Part shown: piece by piece, positions 6,373 through 63,285 of the stretch | Position numbering within the stretch: position 1 is the first letter of the stretch | How the letters are laid out: the number at the start of each line of letters is the position of its first letter | NCBI GenBank assembly: GCA_000004985.1 | Contig: GG738845.1 | DNA from: Naegleria gruberi | Lineage: Eukaryota | DNA: 64,000 nucleotides | Direction: 5' to 3' (one strand) | Made by a program: the position numbers and the translations under genes | The notes under the pieces: generated by a model | What the model was told of the DNA's origin: nothing | The model's input: the letters and a program-made list of their open reading frames with translations, nothing else | The model's database searches: none

Positions 6373-7620
6373 ATGCAAAAATCAGCAAATGATTCATCAT
6401 CATGGTATCCAGGCAAATACAGATATGTTGATTACTGGGCCGAGAGTATTCTCCATTTTACAATGAGAGATGAACAAACAGCAATTTATACAACTGGAGG
6501 TGGAGAAGGGCCTTTTCATAAATATTTAAGTGGAGTTGATGGTTTGAAAATTGTGATGAAATCGTCTTCTAATGGATCTTCGGGAGAAAAGATTCCGTCA
6601 ACAAGTTGTTTTCAACAAGAGGAATATATTCCATATCTACAATTGGAACAAGAAGGAGGATTTGATAATAGAAATTCCAATCAAAAAGTACCATCTGATC
6701 AATTACCTTCTCAACTCATCATTCCACTCAGATTCCATGATGAAGGGTTGAAAAATTTTACATTCATGTTACGTAGAATTTCTAGTGTGAAACAATTTCT
6801 TGTTTCTTCTTTTTTGGCTCCTAATGTTGAATCATTGTTTGGAAATTTGGAAAAAAAGAATGAGATTGTTAGAAAAATTATGAATGCTCCTTTGGATATT
6901 AGAGCTCATGTTTATCCGGATACAACTTTTTCAATGTGTTTGAAGATGGCTCTCGATTCATATATTATTCAACATGAATTGAGATTACCAACAGTTATTG
7001 ATAATTCACCATCAAGTCTATCAGCAGCAGTACCAAGAGGTTGGATTAATGAAACTCTTCTTTCTATCAAGTCAAATAGAGCACATACAGATATTTTCCA
7101 ATCGTTTTCTCCAATTCAATCTCAAACATTGTTATCAGGACTTTTTAGAGCTTACCAAACAAAGAACATTGCAGTGGATGTAGGTGGATGTATTCTTGCT
7201 TGTGATTACATGCCAGGAAATTTGGCCTATGCTGCTAGATTTGGAATTGTTTCACCACTCTCACAGAAAAAGACAACTGTTGTTTTCAATGGTGATCTTT
7301 TGGGGCATATGCACCTTTCCTACACAACCCAAATCTCAAGAATTTATGGTTTGGCTGCTAGTGCTCAACTTCGTTACAACAGTACACAAACTCAAACAGA
7401 AATGGCTGTTGGTATTGAATGTGTTTCTCCACCAGGAGCTGAAGATTATGCTACCAAATTCAGAGTTGATACTGAAAAGGGAATTGCAGCCCTCATTGAA
7501 AAGAGAAAATTCTGGAATAATGACAAGCTCAATGTTGGTGTTACTATTGCTAAGAATTTCTCTGGGGCTAGTTCTTTGTCTGGATTGAAATTGGGCTTGA
7601 ATCTTCAAATAGAATATTAA
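6373..7620 (+). CDS. Putative mitochondrial outer-membrane beta-barrel protein (Mdm10/porin-like), tentative
   Basis: 415-aa ORF with an ATG start. Amphipathic strands alternate throughout. The C-terminus ...GLKLGLNLQIEY ends in an aromatic residue and fits the mitochondrial beta-signal pattern. The N-terminal W....Y motif is reminiscent of Mdm10. I have no strong family assignment. Confidence 0.3.
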   Translation: MQKSANDSSSWYPGKYRYVDYWAESILHFTMRDEQTAIYTTGGGEGPFHKYLSGVDGLKIVMKSSSNGSSGEKIPSTSCFQQEEYIPYLQLEQEGGFDNRNSNQKVPSDQLPSQLIIPLRFHDEGLKNFTFMLRRISSVKQFLVSSFLAPNVESLFGNLEKKNEIVRKIMNAPLDIRAHVYPDTTFSMCLKMALDSYIIQHELRLPTVIDNSPSSLSAAVPRGWINETLLSIKSNRAHTDIFQSFSPIQSQTLLSGLFRAYQTKNIAVDVGGCILACDYMPGNLAYAARFGIVSPLSQKKTTVVFNGDLLGHMHLSYTTQISRIYGLAASAQLRYNSTQTQTEMAVGIECVSPPGAEDYATKFRVDTEKGIAALIEKRKFWNNDKLNVGVTIAKNFSGASSLSGLKLGLNLQIEY

Positions 7621-9508: not shown

Positions 9509-11829
9509 ATGCTCTCATCAAAGTCTTCTGTTGCATCCATCAATTTGATGGATTGTCAAAAAGGTACGTCTGATAATCTAAATGATCGGAAATTGTTAAT
9601 CATATAAAAGAGAGTATTTTAAACATGTTAAATATTGAAGGCTACGATGCCATTACTAATACATCAAGTAAAAAGAAAAAGAAGAAAGCCAGTGGATCCA
9701 ATGATCATGTTCTTACGGGTCATGAATTAGGACATCAATTAACAGAACGAAAAGTACAACAGTGGAAAGTTTTAATTATGGATAAACATTGTTCAGAAAT
9801 TATTACTCCATTGTTCAAAGTTGGAGATTTGAGAGCAATGGGAGTGACTTTAATGTTGTAAGTTATTTTGTTGTGATTTGTGGATAATTGATTTAGACCT
9901 TTAGAAGAGAAGAGACAACCAATTGCAGATGCACCGGCCATTTATTTTGTTCAACCAACTCAACATAATATCGATCGCATTTGTAGTGATTGTGAAAGGG
10001 AGCTCTATGCCTCCTGTCATATTAATTTTTGCCATAGTAATTATAAAAGAGATATTTTGGAAAAGATGGCCACCAAATTGGTTCAAACTGAATCAACACA
10101 TTTACTTTCAAAAGTTTTGGATCAATTTGTTAATTATATTTGCCTAGAGAAGGATTTTTTCTCCTTACTAGGTTTGGATAATTGTTTATTACAACTTCAT
10201 GATCCAACCAAGAAGGAAGAGGAAATTAAATTAATTGTGGATCAAATAGCAAACGGAATTGCATCAGTTATTTTGTCTTCATCAAATGGAAAGAATAATA
10301 CCTCTGGAGGATTTGTAATGCCAATTATTGTCTGCCCCTCAGCTCAAGGAAAACCAGCCAGATTTATTGCCGAAGCTGTTGAAAAAACTCTGAGGAATTT
10401 GGCCCAATCACCTCTTCAAGAAAATCAAAAGAATGAAACAAGTGTTGATAAAAAGAAGAATAGGCCACTATTGATAATTATGGACAGAACAGTTGATTTT
10501 ACAGTTTGCTTACAACACCAATGGACATACCGTTCTATGATTCATGACATTTTCCAAATGAAATCCAATCAAGTTAAGGTTCCAATCAGAAAGAAGGTTT
10601 CTGAAAATTCATCCCCAGAACAGACCTATGAGATTGCTTTGGATGATGAATTTTGGATTGAAAATGCTACCAAACCATTCCAAGAAGTAGCTCAAAATGT
10701 AACAAACTATTTGGAAAAGCACAAAGCAAAATTGAACGAGTTTAACAAAAAATATGGATTAAATATGAGTGAGGAAGATGTTATGAAGTCATCATCAAGC
10801 ACTGAAGATTCTGGACTCAATAAGAATACTGTTGATGAAGTATTTGTCATGTCACAAGAAAGAACCAGAGTTGACATGCACACCAATATTGCCTATGCTA
10901 TCCTTCATGAGGTAAACAAGAGAAAATTAGATGAATTTGTTGCAATCGAAGAGGCTCTTATCACCAAACAATCAAAGATTGAATCCGCAGTCTTACACTC
11001 CCTGTTGAATGTTTCAGAGGAGGGTGAGCAAGAAAAAGGTACTTTGGAAGACAAGTTGAGACTCATTCTTGTATGCTATCTCTACATTATTCAACAAGAA
11101 AGATTAAACCAGGATCCTCAATTCATAACTCGCCAGGAATTAGAAAAATACGCACTTACCCTTCAACAACGAAGATTGAGCCAGGAAGGTCAAGAATTCA
11201 AGGGTGCAACAAATTTATCCCTTGAAAATATTTTACCTGAAATTGCATTCTTGAAACAAATGACACGACACATCAGTATGACAAGAGGTACTAATGAATC
11301 ATCACTCAGACACAATTCTTCTCTTGCCAATTTGACTAAAAAGTTTTCAATTTTGGGGGATCAAATTAAGAGTATTGCGTCAGGTCTCAATGAATATTAT
11401 GGTGAGGGATCAGAGTATAGAACTACCCTTCCTCTCACTAGAATTGTTGATGCCATAGTGAATAATACACCAAGAAAACTCTCAGAACATGAGGAGTTTG
11501 TATTTATTGATCCAAAACTCCCACCTTCCCAATCACTAATCAAAACTTATTCTAAATCTTCTCCTGAAACAAATACCAATACTACTCCTGGTATGAGAAT
11601 GGATGAAATTGGCCAATCTTCCCACAATGTATCAAATAATTCACAAGATGGATTCAGTGATGTGATTACCTTTGTTGTTGGTGGTGGTAATTATATGGAA
11701 TATTCAAATCTCCTCCAACACTTTATTGCCAAGAGTGGTACTTCCATTAATGTTACCTATGGATCTACAAATGTTTTGACTGGTGGACAATTTTTAAATG
11801 AAATTAGAGCCTTAGGGAGTAATAAATAA
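9509..11829 (+). CDS. SLY1: SLY1 / SCFD1 (Sec1-family ER-Golgi SM protein); three exons: 9509..9563, 9611..9857, 9897..11829
   Basis: Exon 1 encodes MLSSKSSVASINLMDCQK. After a GTACGT...AAAAG intron (9564..9610) the joined sequence reads ...CQKESILNMLNIEG, matching SCFD1 ...RQTVALKRMLNFN. The second intron GTAAGT...ATTTAG (9858..9896) gives GVTLMLPLEEKRQPIADAPAIYFVQPT, the hallmark Sly1 motif. The rest is a continuous Sec1-family ORF to 11829. Confidence 0.85.
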
Positions 11830-33129: not shown

Positions 33130-35529
33130 ATGAAGAACACAAGCAGTGGAAGAAACCTGTGTTCGTTGTTGATGAAGAAAAACCATCATCGGGTTACTGC
33201 TTCCAGACTTTCAGGAACCATTTCATCTCTTCACAACAATATATCAACATGGAAAAGTGTTCCTTCCTTCATTAATAACTCTATCACCATGGCTAGTAAT
33301 AATAATAATTGCAAATTCTATAGTATCATCTCCAATAATAATTTACAATCCGACAAGGAAGACAGGGATGATGATTTTATGGATGACAATTTAATTGAAG
33401 GATTTATTGTTGAATATTTTGATAAGAGTAGTAAAACCATCAAATTAGGCTTGTTGGATGAACATGAATCTGTTATTTATCAAGAGAATTTTACAAATGT
33501 TAAAAACAAGGATGTTGTCATTATAGAAAAGTGGTCAAACATGTTGACTACTTTGAATGATTTACGAGAAATTAGAGAAAAGGCTAATTATATGGTATTG
33601 GATGAAACCTATCAAGCAGATTTTGAACTAAGATTGGAAAATCTATTAATTGAAGGATTTACATCTGGAAAGAAATTTTCATCATCAACATTATCGAATG
33701 AATTATTTGAAATTCAAAGTATGATTACCAGATATATTGCTTTTTATTTATTTGAAAATTCTGGATGTTTCAAATATGATACAAGATCCAACAAGTATAT
33801 TGTTATTGAAACAGATTCTAGTCAGATTAGAGTTAAAGATTTTATAAGGAGAGCTAAGAAGCGTATTCAGGAAATTAATGACTTGAAACAAAAGAATGGT
33901 CAAATAGAAAACAATTCACAGCTTCTCAATGCGAATCTTCATACTAAATGGGATCCAATTATTGATGTGCCACTTTTGAGAAAAATGGAGTTTTTCATCC
34001 TTTCCAACTTTTTGAACTCTAAAAACAAGACTATCATTGAATCAATTTTAGAATCTTTCAGATATCCAAAGAATAGACGTGGAGCTGCCCAATTTCTACA
34101 TGCTGTTGGTCATATGCATTTTGAAAAGTCTTCAAATCTCATGGAAGAGAGTATGGACCCAGATTTTGAAAATGTAAAAAATCTCCCATCGATAGTCAAG
34201 CCATTCCCAAACCAAGTTGAAAGTGCTTCTCAAATCATGCTCAAACAAGTTACTTCATTGATTGAAAAGGAAAAGGAAAATATTTCGAGAAGAGACTTAA
34301 GAAAATTGAAATGTATTGCTATTGACGATATTTCTACACAGGCATACGATGATGCTGTCAGTATTGAAAAGACTGTGAATGGATATAAGATTTATATTCA
34401 TGTTTGTGATGTTTCCTCATTTATTACTAAGAATGATGCCCTTGAAACAGAATCTCGTTCCAGAGTTAAAACAATCTATGGAAAGAATGGTGTCCGTTTA
34501 ATGTTGCATCCTTGTGCTATCAGAGCTATCACGCTTTCACCAGAGAGAGAAAACCTAGGGTTCACTCTTGAACTCAGTCTTATAAAGAGTGGCTCAGAAC
34601 TTAAATTGGACAAGTATGAATTTTACAAATCCATTCTTCCAAAGGTTGAAATATTCACTTATAACACTGTAGACTCACTCTTCAATCAATTTGTAAAGAA
34701 AAAGATGGGCAACAAGTCAACTGATATGGATCAATCTCATCAATTGCTGATAGAAATGCTTCATATTTCAATCAATGTAGATAAGAGTTTGAATTTGGGG
34801 TTAATTTCCAAAACAAAATCAACTCCTGCTCACGATACTGTTGCAATTATTATGAGTATTGCCAATAGTGTCTTGGCTGCTCACATCAAGCAAGTAGATA
34901 TACAAAATCTATTCCCACAATCCAATTCATACTATAGATTTACTTCTCCTATGAGAAGGTATGCTGATTTGGTTACCCACATCCAATATAACTCATTACT
35001 GAACAATAGCAAGGAGCCTATCTATTCAGATAAGGAAATTAAGAATATTTGTACAGAAATTCAATCATTTGAAAAGGATATTTTGGAAACTCAACTAATG
35101 ATGGATAAGAAAAAGAGAGATTTGGCAACATCAAAAAATAAGAATCAATCGGTCAATAATAGCAATCAAAAGCAATCCAATAAGGTGATTGGTAAGGTTG
35201 TTAAAAAGAGAAAGGGTATGAGCTCTGTTTACATCCCATCTATGGATAAAACAATTTCTCTTCACTTGGTTGAATTTGACGAAGTGAAAATGATAGAGCT
35301 ATTGTCTGGCATTCTTCCCGAAACTGAAAAATCATCAATGGATATGCTTGGATGGCCTGCCCTTACTAAGAAAATGAAGGAAAATAGATCTCCAAATGAT
35401 ATTATGGAAGGTTCCAAAGTTGTCTTGAACATCAAACACATTGAATATTACGAAAACGATACTTACAAACCAAAGGTTATTGTTGCTGAACATTGTTTTG
35501 AAGAAAAGGTTGACAATTATACCATTTAA
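33130..35529 (+). CDS. RNB-domain 3'-5' exoribonuclease (RNase II/R family), possibly mitochondrial
   Basis: 799-aa ORF. RNB motif I is AIDDISTQAYDDAVSIE (DxxxxxDxDDA). Motif IV is FTSPMRRYADLVTH. The N-terminus is basic and Ser-rich like a mitochondrial presequence. Confidence 0.7.
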   Translation: MKNTSSGRNLCSLLMKKNHHRVTASRLSGTISSLHNNISTWKSVPSFINNSITMASNNNNCKFYSIISNNNLQSDKEDRDDDFMDDNLIEGFIVEYFDKSSKTIKLGLLDEHESVIYQENFTNVKNKDVVIIEKWSNMLTTLNDLREIREKANYMVLDETYQADFELRLENLLIEGFTSGKKFSSSTLSNELFEIQSMITRYIAFYLFENSGCFKYDTRSNKYIVIETDSSQIRVKDFIRRAKKRIQEINDLKQKNGQIENNSQLLNANLHTKWDPIIDVPLLRKMEFFILSNFLNSKNKTIIESILESFRYPKNRRGAAQFLHAVGHMHFEKSSNLMEESMDPDFENVKNLPSIVKPFPNQVESASQIMLKQVTSLIEKEKENISRRDLRKLKCIAIDDISTQAYDDAVSIEKTVNGYKIYIHVCDVSSFITKNDALETESRSRVKTIYGKNGVRLMLHPCAIRAITLSPERENLGFTLELSLIKSGSELKLDKYEFYKSILPKVEIFTYNTVDSLFNQFVKKKMGNKSTDMDQSHQLLIEMLHISINVDKSLNLGLISKTKSTPAHDTVAIIMSIANSVLAAHIKQVDIQNLFPQSNSYYRFTSPMRRYADLVTHIQYNSLLNNSKEPIYSDKEIKNICTEIQSFEKDILETQLMMDKKKRDLATSKNKNQSVNNSNQKQSNKVIGKVVKKRKGMSSVYIPSMDKTISLHLVEFDEVKMIELLSGILPETEKSSMDMLGWPALTKKMKENRSPNDIMEGSKVVLNIKHIEYYENDTYKPKVIVAEHCFEEKVDNYTI

Positions 35530-35646
35530 TTAAAATTTTAATTTTTTACCCACCCTTTCTAATAAATTAATAAATCCAAGTTGAAACCTGAGCTATTACA
35601 TAAATCCATGTGAAGGCTCTCCTGTCAATATTTCCTCCATCCAGGA

Positions 35647-38624
35647 TTATAGTTTTCGTTTAATGGTTCCTGGGTTAGATATTTCAATCAAATCTCTAAA
35701 GCAAAGAGCTCGCACCTGAACATTGAATAGAGATTGTAGTTTAGAATCATCCTTCTTTGCTTTTTTCATTTGTGCAAATCTCTCCAACCATTCAGCCACT
35801 TCAATTTCATACCTTACATTCATTTTACATTGTTCCAAGGTGTTTTTTGCCATGTACAAGTCTGGTGTTTCATGTTTTTCTTTTGTATTGTCACATAGGA
35901 ATAGAGTTGGATGGTAAAAGGCTAGATTGTACTCATAGCCTTCCCTCTTTGTGAGAGGTCTGATGAATTGATTGAGAGATTGTCCTTTCATAGGTTGAAT
36001 GAAAAATAATTCATTGAGCACCAACTTTTCGATCCATGGCCTTTTCGAATATTCTTTCGTATTGATGGAAATGAATTCGGTTTGATATATCGTAGAAGGA
36101 CTTGTAAACATGTCCGTAAATAGAGTTTTGAGCTTGCTTTGGACCTTCTTCCATGTTTCTTGAGAGATTTGTTCTGATGTTTCTGCTGTATCGATCTGAG
36201 AGGAGAGAATTGACTTTCTCTTTTGCTTTCTACCTTTGAAAATCGTTTCATCTTTGTATGTAGAGCAACATCCCTCACAATAATACTTGATAATGGTGTT
36301 GACTTCCTCTGGTGTAATGTCAATACATGAAAAGTGATAGTGATTTCTGCATCTTTCACACATAACCATTTCATTGGTTTTCCAAGATCCTCCACATTTA
36401 CAAAAAGTATTCTTCTTTCTTTTAGAGACTGATTTACCGGATTGGTGCTCTTTCAAAGCTTTACAATATTTACAATTAAATGCTCGTTTTTCACTGTAAT
36501 CAGTGGCCTTTTCCCCTACACATTTGCAGTGATACCAAATCTCACAACTCTCACACTGTATCATATCATCTCTTGAGCTATCATATATACCTCTACAGAA
36601 ACAATAATTTGTATCTTGTTGTTCAGTTCTAACACAAGTATTACAGTGGAAGGTTTTGGAAGGTGGGTTGTGAACTCCAACGCATGATTTGTGGAATACA
36701 TTATTGCAAAGATTACACTCAACCTTATCTCTTGGCTTGAGCTCGAGTTGACAAAAACAACTAGTCTTAGATTTGGGAATGAGTTGTTTTGGATCAAATT
36801 CTTCCTCATCGTCAGACATGTACTTAGCTGATTCAGAATTGGATTGGAATTGCTTTGTAAGATAATTCATTGTTTCTAGCGGTAAACTACTACTATCACC
36901 ACTGCTGATTAATTGTTCAGCAGTGGTATCGCTTGTTTGAATAGTTACATCTTTGAAAATGGAAGATAATGTATTATATTCCTCTTCAAATAGACCTTGG
37001 TTGCTTCTTATTTCATCAATTTTGACTTGCCAACAAGCTAAAAAGTCAACAATGTTTTCCTTTGGTATATCACCTCTATTATTGTTGGCATCATAAAGAA
37101 AAATATGATTAACTTACTTTAGTGCTGTAATAATCTTCTTGAACCAAGATTGCTCTTTGAAACTTCTTGGAGAAATAATGGACTGATGGATAATTAGGAC
37201 AAGATCGTCATTCTTCTCTTCACCAATTATTTCCAAGGTTTGTTTAACATTTTGCTCTTTAAAAACCAAGCAACGCAGGGCTATTTCGATCAATTCAACA
37301 ATGAGAGGATGAATGTAAAAGAAAAATCTGAATTGAGTTATACAGGGACTTATATCTTCTTCAGTAACATTGTTTCCACTTTAAACAACAACATTCTTAT
37401 CCAAACATTGATAAGGCTATTAACTTACAATTTCGATTTTACAGAAGGTAATGATTTCAATAGTGGCAATAACTCTTTAGAAAAGAGAATTTGTAAACAT
37501 TTTTCGTCTGGTAATGTGAAAAAAGCTCTAGTAAAAATAGAGAGTGGGCAATAGTGGAAATGTCTAGTATACAAATGCTATTCCATTTCAATAATTTCAG
37601 TAATCACATTGAAACTTACCTTGAGAGAGTTGGAAAAATGTTTGAGGGATGTAAAATCGTTCATTAAAAATTTCAAAACTTCATAGCTAGGTCTTAAATT
37701 AACATTGAAATTTTTCTGAATAAAGAGATCATTGGTACATTTCAAAAATAGTGGCTTTGCTAATGATTGAGTTTTGAACGTTTTGATTTGAAATCTGCTC
37801 AACTGTTGTACAATATTAGTTTGTTCAATTAAAAATAGTTTAACTTACATCAACATTCATCCCTTCCAAAATATCAACTCCCTTCTCATCCACTCTCAAG
37901 ATATTAATGATTGGAAATCTTGAAGAATATGATGAACACAACTCTAACCATTTTCCAATTTGAGGTACATTGTGAGTATTCTCGAAAACAAATACGATTG
38001 CCTTCTTTCCACCAGGTGAAGAATATGTCATTTCTTTAAGGGCGTCGGGTAATCCAAATACTTTGTTTGTATACTTTTGTGCAATTAGTGTCAATAGAGC
38101 TTTTAAGGTTGGAAACATTGTCTCTGATCTGAAAATGCAAACATGAAATCCGTCCAATTTTTGTCCTTTTTTTGGAGCTTCTTCCTCATAATCTTCATAG
38201 TCCTCGTATTCATCATATTCGTCATCATATTCCACATATGAATCTCTAATGAAAAATGATTCCATTAATTTGTCTATTATTTCGAAACAATTAACATTCG
38301 AAATGTGACATTTAACCTACTTGTTGTTGTTTTCAAAATGATTACAGGTGAAATACATTTACTCAAGCCTTTATCAAATCTTTCTGCAATATCCTGTAAC
38401 TCTTCAATAATTAACTCTTCAGTGTGGGTATTTTCTTCAGCACTTGCCTTTCTATTGATAAACTCTTCCACATTATGAATTGATGAATCTATAATTTTCT
38501 GATATTTATCATGTTTTAAAAAGTCCTTTCTTGCCTCCGATAAGTCTTGTTCTTCAAGAATCAACTTCTTCTTGTGTGATCTCCGCCTAGAACGAACAGG
38601 TATTGTCAAAGAGTTGTTTATCAT
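35647..38624 (-). CDS. Multi-PHD-finger protein of about 916 aa. Six exons: 38321..38624, 37849..38273, 37620..37802, 37429..37577, 37118..37378 and 35647..37075
   Basis: Four separate track ORFs plus unannotated sequence join through five in-phase short introns. They are GTAGGT...AATAG (47 nt), GTAAGT...CAACAG (46 nt), GTAAGT...GGAATAG (42 nt), GTAAGT...TTTAAAG (50 nt) and GTAAGT...AATAATAG (42 nt). The C-terminal half has three PHD fingers (CFCQ...HKSC...C, CFCR...HCKC, CKCG...HFSC...C). Confidence 0.6.
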
Positions 38625-38690
38625 TTTTTTAAAAACTAATTTTTTGAATAAATTTTGGCGGGTAAAACATTATTGTTGCTTCCAAGAAAA

Positions 38691-40343
38691 CTATTGAGTA
38701 TTGAACTTTATTGGAATGTTGTACTTGTTGGAAATGTGATCCTCATAGTGATGATGACCTGAATCGAAAAATTCCATCAGATTTTCCTTCACTCGTTTAG
38801 ATCTCTCCTCAATTTGTTGTTCAAAGTTTGGAATTTGCATCTTGATTCTGAAAAGATTACTTGCTGGATTTGAGATATGTTTGAAAAAGTAATAACCTGC
38901 CAGTACATCAAGGGCAGCATATTCAATTCTTATGTTTCCTTTGGATGTTGAGGGCCTCATATCTTTTGGATTCCAAATCAAATCATTGTACTTTAAATTA
39001 TTTTCAAATTTGTGATAAATCTTTGGTGCACAGAAGGAGAATAGTTTTTGTAGACCTAATACTAGAGGATCACCTTCAACCCATCCATGTTCGTTCACAT
39101 TCAGGTCGGTTTGCAGGTTTGAATCAACTAATTGTTCATGCTTGTGATGTTGCAACCAATTATTGACCTTTTTAATGTCACCACTCAATGAATAACCAAT
39201 TTTCAAAATTTTTGGACTTCGAAAGAAATCGAGAAGGAATTTAGGAATGGGCTGTTTAAAATCAATTAGTAACACAAGACATACATCCAATGTCGATATT
39301 TGTAAGAGTCTGATACCGTGATCATTTTCATCATTGAAATTCCATTCTGTATCAACAACAAAAATTGAAGATTGATCTGCTGTATCCATGAATGAGTTCC
39401 AAATTCTCTTTTCCAATTTGCTCAATCTAGAGACAATTATCAGCTTGTCAGAATAGTCCAAATGAGTTAGAGATGTTCCAACCAGATGTTTCTTTTCTGG
39501 AATTGCTGATAATTTTTGTTTAATGTCTGTATTCCAAACTGAGAATCCATTCTTTGTTTTCTTTTTCAAATATAATTCATTATTATCCAACAAACCAGAA
39601 ATATATTCCACAAATTTAGAACGGTCGAGACCAAAATAATTAGTATTAGAGTAGACATTGCCAATATTAAAACATGCATCACCACTATTTACATTGAAAA
39701 TTCCCACAAATGAAGAGCAAATCTGTCCAAACAATCGATCCTTAAACTCTTGGCTTGTATTATCCTTTTTGGAAAAGAATGGTGCGATTTTTTTGCAAAC
39801 AATGGTGTCATCTTGAATTTCAGTAATATTGAGCTCTTTGGAATGTTGCTCAACAAATGTTTTGCTTAATAAATAATGTAATCTAGGTAGAATTTGTTTA
39901 AGTTTTGTTGTCATTTCTTTCATAGAACATGAGACAATTCCCTTCTCTTCTTTTCCACAATATTTTAAATAGTTGAAAATAAAAATTACTAATTGTGTAT
40001 CATCACTGCCATAAATTGTGTCAATAATTCTTTTAACAGTAGCAAGTTTATGCAATTCCTTCTTTCCTAATCTCTTTTCCGAGTCGTTTACATCCTCAGT
40101 AGCAACTAAGTCGATATCTTTTTCAAGTACAAAAGATGATGTTATTTGTTCATCCCTTTCATTCTTTTCCTCCGAAGTATGCTTTTTCTTTTTTGTTTTA
40201 GGTTCCAATTTATGTGGTTTTTCTTGTTGTTTAATTTGTGTTGATGATTTTTTCTTCTTATCTTTGTTATGTTGTTTCGATGATGAAGAATTGTTTCCCT
40301 TTTTCAACAGTTGGGATTTAACTTCCTCTCTTCCTCTTTTCAT
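38691..40343 (-). CDS. 3'-5' exonuclease-domain protein (DEDDy/RNase D-like, Mut-7/EXD-like) with a basic Lys/Ser-rich N-terminus
   Basis: 550-aa ORF. IFVVDTEWNFND (Exo I, DxE) ... LLQISTLDVCLVLLI ... IGYSLSGDIKKV ... YAALDVLAGYYFF (Exo III, YxxxD) are consistent with Pfam 3'-5' exonuclease. Confidence 0.6.
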   Translation of the reverse strand: MKRGREEVKSQLLKKGNNSSSSKQHNKDKKKKSSTQIKQQEKPHKLEPKTKKKKHTSEEKNERDEQITSSFVLEKDIDLVATEDVNDSEKRLGKKELHKLATVKRIIDTIYGSDDTQLVIFIFNYLKYCGKEEKGIVSCSMKEMTTKLKQILPRLHYLLSKTFVEQHSKELNITEIQDDTIVCKKIAPFFSKKDNTSQEFKDRLFGQICSSFVGIFNVNSGDACFNIGNVYSNTNYFGLDRSKFVEYISGLLDNNELYLKKKTKNGFSVWNTDIKQKLSAIPEKKHLVGTSLTHLDYSDKLIIVSRLSKLEKRIWNSFMDTADQSSIFVVDTEWNFNDENDHGIRLLQISTLDVCLVLLIDFKQPIPKFLLDFFRSPKILKIGYSLSGDIKKVNNWLQHHKHEQLVDSNLQTDLNVNEHGWVEGDPLVLGLQKLFSFCAPKIYHKFENNLKYNDLIWNPKDMRPSTSKGNIRIEYAALDVLAGYYFFKHISNPASNLFRIKMQIPNFEQQIEERSKRVKENLMEFFDSGHHHYEDHISNKYNIPIKFNTQ

Positions 40344-61700: not shown

Positions 61701-63285
61701 CTATTAGAATTACTACCATAATTATAGTTACCACCATAGTTGCCATAACTTGATGAAGAGCTTGAAGATCCGTAAGAGAATCTCACATTTGGACCAACGC
61801 AATCACCACCATCAAAATCACATTGAGTAACATTGCAAGAAACGTCACAATAACCATCACCTAACCAAGATTCTTGGCATCCTTCATGGCATGGAGGAAC
61901 TTCCCAACTGAGGAATACTTTTTGTCCAGTTGAGTGACTATAAAAATCCTCTGGATACACATCGTTACCAAACATGACATCATCATTCAAGTAAATAAAC
62001 TTTTTAGAAAGGCCAGGAATTCTATGAATTTGAGATTCAATAGAAGGTGAGCTGAAAACTGGTAAATGGATTGGATTTCTGTAAACATCGGCATGTTTAA
62101 CAATTTTAACCTTTGGATTCTTTACGTTTAACCAGCTTGGCACTTGACCACTTGTCACAATATAAACATTTCTGACCCATGGAGCAAATCGTTCCAAACT
62201 ACGTAAACTGTATCTCAACTCATCATTATCTCTAAATCTGTTACTACTATTGGTATCATCAGTTTTGGTAGCATTCTTAGTTGTTGTACCATTGTTGATA
62301 ATTTCTGAGTCATTTTTAACTTTAGGAGTATTTTCCTTCTTTGATTTCTTAGTGGTCTTTTTTGTCAAAGCCTTGTTAGTTTTTGCTTTCTTTCCAGTGG
62401 CACCCTTTTTTTCAACCTTAGTATGTTGTTGTTTGGTAACTGGTGGTTTGGTTGTCTTTTTTGATGAATTGGTTTTCTTTGTAACAGGTGCTTTAGTCTT
62501 TTTGGTTACTTTGGCATTCTTATTGGTTTGAGGAATTGATTTCTTATTAGTTTCTTGTTTCTTCTTGCTTGTGGATTTCACAGAGAGTAATCTTCTTCTC
62601 TTCTTTGTTTTGTTTTCTTGTGTTTTCACATGTGCATTTCCTACTCCTTTCAAATGGTAATTATTGGTTGTTTTCTGATTGGATTTGCTAGAATCAGTAG
62701 TACTAGTAGTAGTAGTATTGGAAGACGTCTTGGTAGCAGCACTTTCAATTGTTTTAGTATTGTCAACATTAGATTTTTCTTCCTTCTCCTTTTCCAAAGC
62801 ATTAAATCGTTTCACTAAATTCTTGTGTATTGGATCGGAACCATTGACCCAAGTATAAACAATATCCATAGGTTCATAACACAATTTAGAAACTGAATTA
62901 ATTTTCATAATATTATCTCTATACATCCTATTACAATAATTTCCCAATTGTGATGCTTCATCATCCTATATTAAATATTTAAATAAATAATTTAAAAATT
63001 GAAATGTTAAAATTATTGAGAATAAATTCATTCGCATTATTATAAACTTACCACAAGGGTAGTCTTATCAGTGATGGAAATATCCAAAATAGATTGTAAC
63101 AAGTGCAATGCCGTATTTAAAGTAATAAATGTAATAATAATCAACAATATAGCACCCCATTTAGATGTTGCAAAGGAATAGAATGAACGTTGAATAGACT
63201 TTGAAAATTGATCATTAAAACAGGAACAACATTTCTTTCCTCTCTTATGATCCAATCCGACATTAGCAGTCGATGAGGGTAACAT
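58715..63285 (-). CDS. UDP-GlcNAc:lysosomal-enzyme N-acetylglucosamine-1-phosphotransferase alpha/beta-like (Stealth family with Notch LNR repeats). Two exons: 63052..63285 and 58715..62965, with an 86-nt intron
   Basis: Exon 1 gives a signal-anchor TM (WGAILLIIITFITLNTALHLL). The joined sequence ...LCYEPMDIVYTWVNGSDP is Stealth CR1, and IYLNDDVMFG is CR2. There are two LNR modules (CHEGCQESWLGDGYCDVSCNVTQCDFDGGDC and CSASCSDSWIGDRFCDRPCNVKECGYDAGDC). A C-terminal Stealth CR3/CR4-like region (HMPHMIDRDIMFELQKKW) and a C-terminal TM are present. Basic Lys/Thr low-complexity inserts are also present. Confidence 0.75.
60430..60860 (-). repeat. In-frame direct repeat inside the phosphotransferase gene: two 110-130 bp units about 300 bp apart
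   Basis: The protein shows KATEIDDISENVIKTNPVITENQAV... and KATEIDDISENVIKTNPVIATEKQQV.... The plus-strand shadow ORF shows NDWIGFDNIFRDVINFCCL and NDWIGFDNIFRNIVNFCCL. The nucleotide strings ...actggattggttttgataacattttcaga... occur at about 60487 and about 60787. Confidence 0.7.

Follow-up and report, generated by a model that had tools for sequence, protein, structure and literature searches.

A five-intron gene of Naegleria gruberi probably encodes an origin recognition complex subunit 3 that contains a set of three PHD fingers

Does Naegleria truly lack ORC3, an origin recognition complex (ORC) subunit, or has its gene escaped notice? Three surveys point to absence: Tiengwe 2012 (PMC3297607) found Naegleria gruberi factors that resembled only Orc1, Orc4, Orc2, and Orc6; Ocaña-Pallarès 2020 (PMC7058166) reported putative orthologues of every ORC subunit "except ORC3 in Discoba"; and in the supplement of Butenko 2020 (PMC7052976), ORC3 was likewise not found in the Naegleria lineage. 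The question is raised by a locus on the minus strand (38624..35647) of a 64-kb stretch of N. gruberi DNA (64,000 nucleotides [nt] of contig GG738845.1, assembly GCA_000004985.1), hereafter called the window. A preliminary description, made from the sequence, had joined several open reading frame (ORF) fragments there into one gene encoding multiple PHD fingers. Our analysis indicates that the locus is almost certainly a single gene with five short introns that encodes one protein of 916 amino acids (aa), and that the N-terminal part of this protein is very likely the AAA+-like and helical body of ORC3. Taken as a whole, the locus is likely to be a five-intron ORC3 gene with three embedded PHD fingers, which may tether ORC to chromatin.

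The gene consists of six exons, begins with an ATG at 38624, and ends with a stop codon at 35649..35647. Between 35600 and 38700, the minus strand holds exactly five GT[AG]NGT hexamers, each of which terminates an open-frame stretch. For each donor, all AGs lying 25 to 140 nt downstream were listed, every combination was tried, and the nearest frame-keeping AG was used. Removal of the resulting introns (Table 1) leaves an uninterrupted ORF of exactly 916 codons, and retention of any one of the five introduces a stop within 1 to 14 codons. The introns have a G+C content of 22 to 28%, compared with 29 to 35% for the exons and 33.5% for the DNA of the window. The preliminary description, which had proposed a gene of about 916 aa with five in-phase introns of 42 to 50 nt and AG acceptors that restore the frame, was thus correct in all particulars of its gene model. 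Its statement that every donor is a canonical GTAAGT or GTAGGT holds for all five junctions (GTAGGT at 38320; GTAAGT at 37848, 37619, 37428, and 37117); its further statement, that the stop codon of the upstream fragment lies at or overlaps the donor, holds only for introns 2, 4, and 5, where the in-frame stop overlaps or directly follows the donor; at introns 1 and 3, that stop lies at the 3' end of the intron. The fourth exon, which had been described as invisible among the listed ORFs, is real; at 149 nt, it falls below the 60-aa cut-off of the ORF list. Eighty other GT-AG combinations also preserve an ORF; these were ruled out because they lose junction residues conserved in Naegleria fowleri and do not fit the intron positions shared with that species.

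Relatives within the genus agree with this gene model. The spliced 916-aa protein retrieved FDP41_000508 of N. fowleri (P0001, 921 aa; E = 3.7e-281, 49% identity, 97% coverage) as well as a Naegleria lovaniensis protein (P0002). An exact look-up found neither the window protein nor the products of its neighbors in the protein collection searched. The window protein aligns with that of N. fowleri without indels across all five junctions, and protein identity between the two ranges from 45 to 63% per exon; an alignment that used exon fragments as rows left out the exon 5 row. When P0001 was mapped to its own locus, the N. fowleri gene proved to have six introns, five of which match those of the window gene in both alignment column and phase (119/1, 265/0, 326/0, 375/2, and 465/2). 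The N. fowleri gene models were made by BRAKER1 with guidance from RNA sequencing (PMC6831594). In N. lovaniensis, the first three introns match those of the window gene; the remainder were left unmapped because the gene model is faulty there. Across the whole window, the minus strand has 23 GTA[AG]GT sites, five of which fall within this 3-kb gene. This count and, decisively, the independent agreement of junctions and introns in N. fowleri place the pattern beyond chance, as had been argued from the phase agreements. By itself, the intron finding is ordinary for the N. gruberi genome.

The N. fowleri and N. lovaniensis genes share a sixth intron (61 nt, phase 0, column 290) at positions 6936-6996 of the N. 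fowleri locus (L001) and 6944-7004 of the N. lovaniensis locus (L002); it is missing from the window gene, and so was lost or gained within the genus. The annotation of the N. lovaniensis protein (868 aa) is wrong in the exon 5 region (L002 7300-7600; PYSW02000014.1): an annotated "intron" of 161 nt (7433-7593) encodes residues that are conserved in N. fowleri, and immediately ahead of the GTAAGT at 7315 the frame seems to be off by one nucleotide, which an indel in the assembly or a misplaced splice site could explain.

What, then, does the gene encode? At full length, the window protein yielded only PHD fingers, both in a Pfam scan and in a sequence search of the PDB. With the PHD region cut out, the sole Pfam match was ORC3_N (PF07034), with E values of 6.9e-4 for the window protein and 1.8e-4 for its N. 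fowleri orthologue; in both, the match spans the last 135 to 150 positions of the model. When a profile of the N-terminal part was run exhaustively with HMMER against 1.84 billion representatives, 11 matches were obtained. Among these were a Willaertia protein (E = 2e-76), an Acrasis kona protein that bears the name "origin recognition complex subunit 3" (E = 4e-14), and P0008, which comes from a metagenome (E = 1e-10). Against ORC3_N, for which the curated cut-off is 25, P0008 and the proteins of Acrasis score 74 to 78 bits, and hhalign connected the Naegleria/Willaertia group to the Acrasis/P0008 group over aa 193-485 (99.7% probability, E = 3e-25). A profile of the whole heterolobosean family matched ORC3 chains only in the PDB (human, E = 4.5e-10; fly, E = 2e-6). 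Thus, the N-terminal 440 aa, which had been described as belonging to no recognizable family and as a possible new reader or adaptor domain, have their only non-PHD match in ORC3.

Structure prediction is consistent with this assignment: among the AAA+ subunits of ORC and Cdc6, it is ORC3 that the modeled fold of the N-terminal body resembles most closely. A search of all 916 aa for the Walker A motif [AG]xxxxGK[ST] found none, and the position expected of a P-loop is taken by the strand CISPVIILK, encoded in exon 1. Within ORC, ORC3 does not serve as an ATPase subunit, and a degenerate nucleotide-binding site is expected of it. In a loop of the AAA+-like domain (window 38225-38284, aa 114-133), there is an alternating Tyr/Asp/Glu run (YVEYDDEYDEYEDYEDYEEE); N. 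fowleri, N. lovaniensis, and Willaertia retain an acidic stretch here but not the exact sequence.

As for the other end of the protein, its last ~170 aa are conserved from Naegleria through Acrasis and P0008. The best PDB match to a profile of this region was the extreme C terminus of fly ORC3 (residues 568-667 of 676), in collinear alignment (E = 0.027). In a predicted model of the window C-terminal segment, the last 70 residues have a predicted local distance difference test (pLDDT) score of 70 to 90 and are arranged as helix-strand-helix-helix-strand-strand; a Foldseek search with this model returned winged-helix folds only; ORC3 chains ranked 4th, 10th, and 13th, and every E value exceeded 0.04. 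Judging from the profile and the predicted model, the C-terminal 170 aa resemble the winged-helix end of ORC3. Because this ORC3-like C terminus is encoded downstream of the PHD fingers, the three fingers would be embedded in ORC3, after its helical middle and before its C-terminal region. They would then not be a module coupled C-terminally to an N-terminal domain, as the preliminary description had suggested.

The proteins of Naegleria, Willaertia magna (KAL9644669.1, P0003; 1192 aa), and A. kona (KAL0487211.1, P0014; 1409 aa) and P0008 (1601 aa) share one arrangement, in which ORC3_N is followed by a helical region, then by several PHD fingers, and last by a conserved C terminus. The Naegleria and Willaertia proteins are clear orthologues by the E values given above. 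By Pfam, the Naegleria and Willaertia proteins each have three PHD stretches, compared with four for Acrasis and five for P0008, and the linkers vary in length. The fusion is not an artefact of annotation, because exon 6 is one ORF from the helical region to the C terminus, and because P0008, with the same order of ORC3_N, PHD fingers, and shared C terminus, is a single intronless ORF. A PDB search with full-length P0008 was uninformative on ORC3, as PHD matches swamped the result. When the family alignment was used as the query of a word-indexed search, only the two Naegleria proteins already named came back, and in the exhaustive profile search each heterolobosean genome had just one such family and no additional ORC3 of a more canonical type. 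The family is not wholly unrecognized: GenBank already calls the A. kona homologues ORC3, whereas the N. fowleri and N. lovaniensis proteins are named "hypothetical protein" or "PHD-type domain-containing protein" and that of Willaertia "hypothetical."

W. magna has two near-identical copies on different contigs (P0003 and P0013; 1192 and 1195 aa). In A. kona, a 786-aa model (P0007) without PHD fingers or the ORC3 C terminus exists alongside the 1409-aa model that has both; P0007 may well be a model cut short or one that stems from a second haplotype.

The triple PHD module itself was described correctly: the window protein scores 59.2 bits against Pfam PHD (PF00628; cut-off, 24) in three stretches, and the C4HC3 zinc ligands are complete in all three fingers. 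The second finger, PHD2, has Tyr, Tyr, Met, and Trp at positions that we take to be those of the methyl-lysine cage of PHF2 (Table 1). It aligns to the PHD finger of PHF2 (E = 6.5e-7), whose complex with a peptide of histone H3 trimethylated at lysine 4 (H3K4me3) has been solved (PDB 3kqi), and also to that of PHF8. Several of the fingers nearest to PHD3 (the CFP1, SHL, ALFIN-LIKE 1, and BPTF group) have likewise been solved with H3K4me3 peptides, according to their PDB entries. PHD3 has aromatic residues at F665 and W672 and a histidine, His685, at the cage Trp position. N. fowleri and N. lovaniensis share this His (36343-36345) with the window protein (NHYH/RHYH); Willaertia has Trp instead, and P0004, a metagenomic relative, has Tyr. 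From these residues, the ligand of the third finger may have changed within Naegleria.

Several observations weigh against the view that this is a five-intron ORC3 gene whose embedded fingers hold ORC to chromatin. The ORC3_N scores of the window protein (19.6 bits) and of its N. fowleri orthologue (21.5 bits) are both under the curated cut-off of 25, although we regard this as a matter of the detection threshold and not as a biological feature. Profiles built from Naegleria sequences alone, for either the N-terminal or the C-terminal part, gave no meaningful PDB match, so that canonical ORC3 is reached in sequence by way of Acrasis-type intermediates. The structure model of the N-terminal body is that of the N. 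fowleri orthologue, with a mean pLDDT of 58.9 and values of 70 to 90 only at approximately residues 270-500. The C-terminal evidence is marginal, both in the profile match and in Foldseek (E = 0.085), which does not significantly single out ORC3. Finally, the cage is missing from PHD1 and its Trp is replaced by His in PHD3, so that only one finger resembles a standard H3K4me3 reader, and even there the second cage aromatic of PHD2 may be placed differently in N. fowleri.

Does the protein belong to ORC at all? It might instead be an ORC3-derived paralogue that works outside the complex, as a chromatin or transcription factor acting through its PHD fingers, in an organism whose ORC is truly without ORC3. 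Such a paralogue would accord with the three surveys, which found no ORC3 in Discoba or N. gruberi, with the great distance of the sequence from canonical ORC3 (11 to 15% identity in structural alignments), and with the position of the window protein below the Pfam threshold. The survey misses, which came from BLAST and Pfam, are explained by that same sub-threshold score, however, and the exhaustive profile search showed one such family per heterolobosean genome, with no more canonical ORC3 beside it. Moreover, the N-terminal body and the winged-helix-like end are both conserved in Naegleria, Willaertia, Acrasis, and P0008, as expected if contacts within the complex are maintained. We therefore consider a paralogue unlikely. 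An uncharacterized reader or adaptor domain in the N-terminal 440 aa, joined to the triple PHD module, would be in keeping with the PHD-only result of the full-length Pfam scan and with the database names of the N. fowleri and N. lovaniensis orthologues; given the matches to ORC3_N and to ORC3 chains, we find it scarcely tenable.

The locus could also be divided between two transcription units, an ORC3_N-like gene ending near 37118 and a PHD gene starting at the ATG at 36870, the latter possibly an isoform from an internal promoter. That ATG by itself opens an ORF of 407 aa, and truncated models exist elsewhere, namely Acrasis P0007 and P0004, which starts in the helical region. Yet the frame of this ATG is open upstream to 37113, a distance of 81 codons, and aa 442-509 are conserved, so that the ATG is internal, as the preliminary description had maintained. 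In addition, exons 5 and 6 join in phase exactly where N. fowleri has an intron, the ORC3 C-terminal region lies 3' of the PHD fingers, and P0008 and P0014 hold all parts in one protein. Two units are thus very improbable, though marginally less so than a new reader domain. Least credible of all is that the frame agreements arose by chance in a pseudogene or noncoding DNA: a 916-codon ORF in DNA of such low G+C content, the per-exon identity to N. fowleri, and the conservation of intron positions and phases between species leave almost no room for it. An ORC3 gene with embedded PHD fingers accounts best for the locus.

How might such a protein work? As ORC3 does elsewhere, it would sit in ORC beside ORC2 and ORC5. 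Its PHD array, led by the Tyr-Tyr-Met-Trp cage of PHD2, would bind H3 tails methylated at K4, and this binding would help to place or hold ORC on promoter-proximal active chromatin ahead of MCM loading. The PHD fingers of ORC3 would then do the job of the PHD finger of plant ORC1 or the BAH domain of animal ORC1, moved to another subunit. H3K4me3 marks most N. gruberi genes, and maps of it exist (PMC12695648). By analogy with known readers, we judge tethering of ORC to H3K4-methylated chromatin specifically to be a real possibility that falls slightly short of even chances. More tentatively still, Heterolobosea (Naegleria, Willaertia, and Acrasis) may read H3K4 methylation through ORC3 and not ORC1, which would make them a third independent wiring of the replication initiator to chromatin.

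Table 1. Positions of the exons, introns, and protein regions of the N. gruberi gene in the window
Feature	Position	Strand	Length (nt)	Residues or phase	Description
ORC3 body	36943..38624	minus		aa 1-485	Split by five introns; AAA+-like domain without Walker A, then helical region (very likely assignment)
Exon 1	38321..38624	minus	304	aa 1-101 + 1 nt	N-terminal helices; 47% identity to N. fowleri
Intron 1	38274..38320	minus	47	phase 1	GTAGGT...AG; same column and phase in N. fowleri and N. lovaniensis
Exon 2	37849..38273	minus	425	aa 102-243	Acidic loop and ORC3_N core strands HVCIF and AIVFVFEN
Intron 2	37803..37848	minus	46	phase 0	GTAAGT...AG
Exon 3	37620..37802	minus	183	aa 244-304	Best-conserved ORC3_N stretch (LFIQKN...RP...F)
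Intron 3	37578..37619	minus	42	phase 0	GTAAGT...AG; closes with the TAG that serves the upstream fragment as in-frame stop
Exon 4	37429..37577	minus	149	aa 305-353 + 2 nt	End of ORC3_N (LYTRHFHYCPLS); 63% identity to N. fowleri
Intron 4	37379..37428	minus	50	phase 2	GTAAGT...AG
Exon 5	37118..37378	minus	261	aa 354-440 + 2 nt	Helical middle region
Intron 5	37076..37117	minus	42	phase 2	GTAAGT...AG
Exon 6	35647..37075	minus	1429 (with stop)		End of helical region, linker, PHD1-3, C-terminal helical and winged-helix region
PHD1	36634..36759	minus		aa 547-588	C4HC3; cage positions non-aromatic (S546, V567)
PHD2	36463..36603	minus		aa 599-645	C4HC3; PHF2/PHF8-type cage Y598, Y605, M612, W621
PHD3	36268..36402	minus		aa 666-710	C4HC3; nearest PHD fingers: CFP1, SHL, ALFIN-LIKE 1, BPTF
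C-terminal region	35650..36162	minus		aa 746-916	Last ~70 aa (35650-35865) predicted winged helix

The gene is closely packed between its neighbors. Only 66 nt (38625-38690) separate its ATG from the stop codon (38691) of the upstream gene, which encodes a 3'-5' exonuclease (38691-40343, minus strand), and 117 nt (35530-35646) lie between the convergent stop codons at its 3' end, where the neighbor is a gene for an RNB-domain exoribonuclease (33130-35529, plus strand). With such tight spacing, the promoter must be very short or overlap the neighboring gene. The N. fowleri and N. lovaniensis orthologues are flanked instead by a BTB-like gene and a DNA primase gene; the latter, encoding the primase small subunit (PF01896), lies ~80 to 150 nt downstream on the same strand (L001 9246-10569; L002 9177-10500). 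Local gene order between the window and these loci is thus not kept, and synteny is of no help.

Elsewhere in the window, GTAAGT is rare on the plus strand, with 6 sites compared with ~22 expected from base composition. On both strands, many sites end open frames, namely those at 63051, 54564, 53947, 53496, 29597, 29396, 24465, 20250, and 14382 on the minus strand and that at 9858 on the plus strand. The frames that they close are 59 to 797 codons long, and a stop follows within 0 to 12 codons (0 to 4 at nine of the ten). Since these other GTAAGT sites close open frames and a stop comes soon after, short GTAAGT introns appear to be normal for this genome, and several other fragments on the ORF list are probably exons of split genes with introns of ~38 to 86 nt.

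The supposed gap at ORC3 in Discoba feeds the argument on whether ORC was already complete in the ancestral eukaryote; together with its relatives, the gene described here would fill that gap. In the literature that we searched, no paper on an ORC3-PHD fusion was found, which does not prove that none exists. A PHD-bearing ORC3 offers a concrete idea of how origins could be chosen in a gene-dense protist genome, namely by the tethering of ORC to nucleosomes methylated at H3K4. As a practical matter, the Naegleria orthologues now called "hypothetical" or "PHD-type domain-containing" merit renaming, and the N. lovaniensis gene model needs correction.

Compared with canonical ORC3 (human, 5uj8/7jpo; Drosophila, 4xgc/7jgr; yeast, 5v8f/5zr1), the Naegleria protein appears to have the usual AAA+-like, helical, and winged-helix parts; what it adds is ~170 aa with three PHD fingers, together with linkers on either side, all placed before the C-terminal region. 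The fingers themselves have their best solved-structure matches in those of PHF2/PHF8, BPTF, CFP1/Spp1, and ALFIN-LIKE 1. Set against these H3K4me3-reading fingers, PHD2 keeps the cage residues aligned with those of PHF2, whereas PHD1 is without an aromatic cage and PHD3 has His for Trp; binding by the Naegleria fingers is a prediction. Within ORC, the BAH domain of metazoan ORC1, which Kuo and colleagues are said to have described in 2012 as a reader of H4K20me2, is likewise a reader of histone methylation, but fold, mark, and subunit all differ. The closest functional analogue is plant ORC1, whose PHD finger, a reader of H3K4me3, goes back to an insertion at the root of Chloroplastida (PMC7058166, citing Sanchez and Gutierrez 2009). 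In both cases, an ORC subunit would have gained a direct reader of the H3 tail by insertion of PHD fingers. The host in plants is ORC1 and not ORC3, the fingers number one and not three, the acquisitions were independent and in unrelated lineages, and H3K4me3 binding has been demonstrated in plants, whereas for the Naegleria protein we infer it. With ORC3 as its host, the Naegleria protein is thus an analogue of the plant-type ORC1-PHD and not a member of it.

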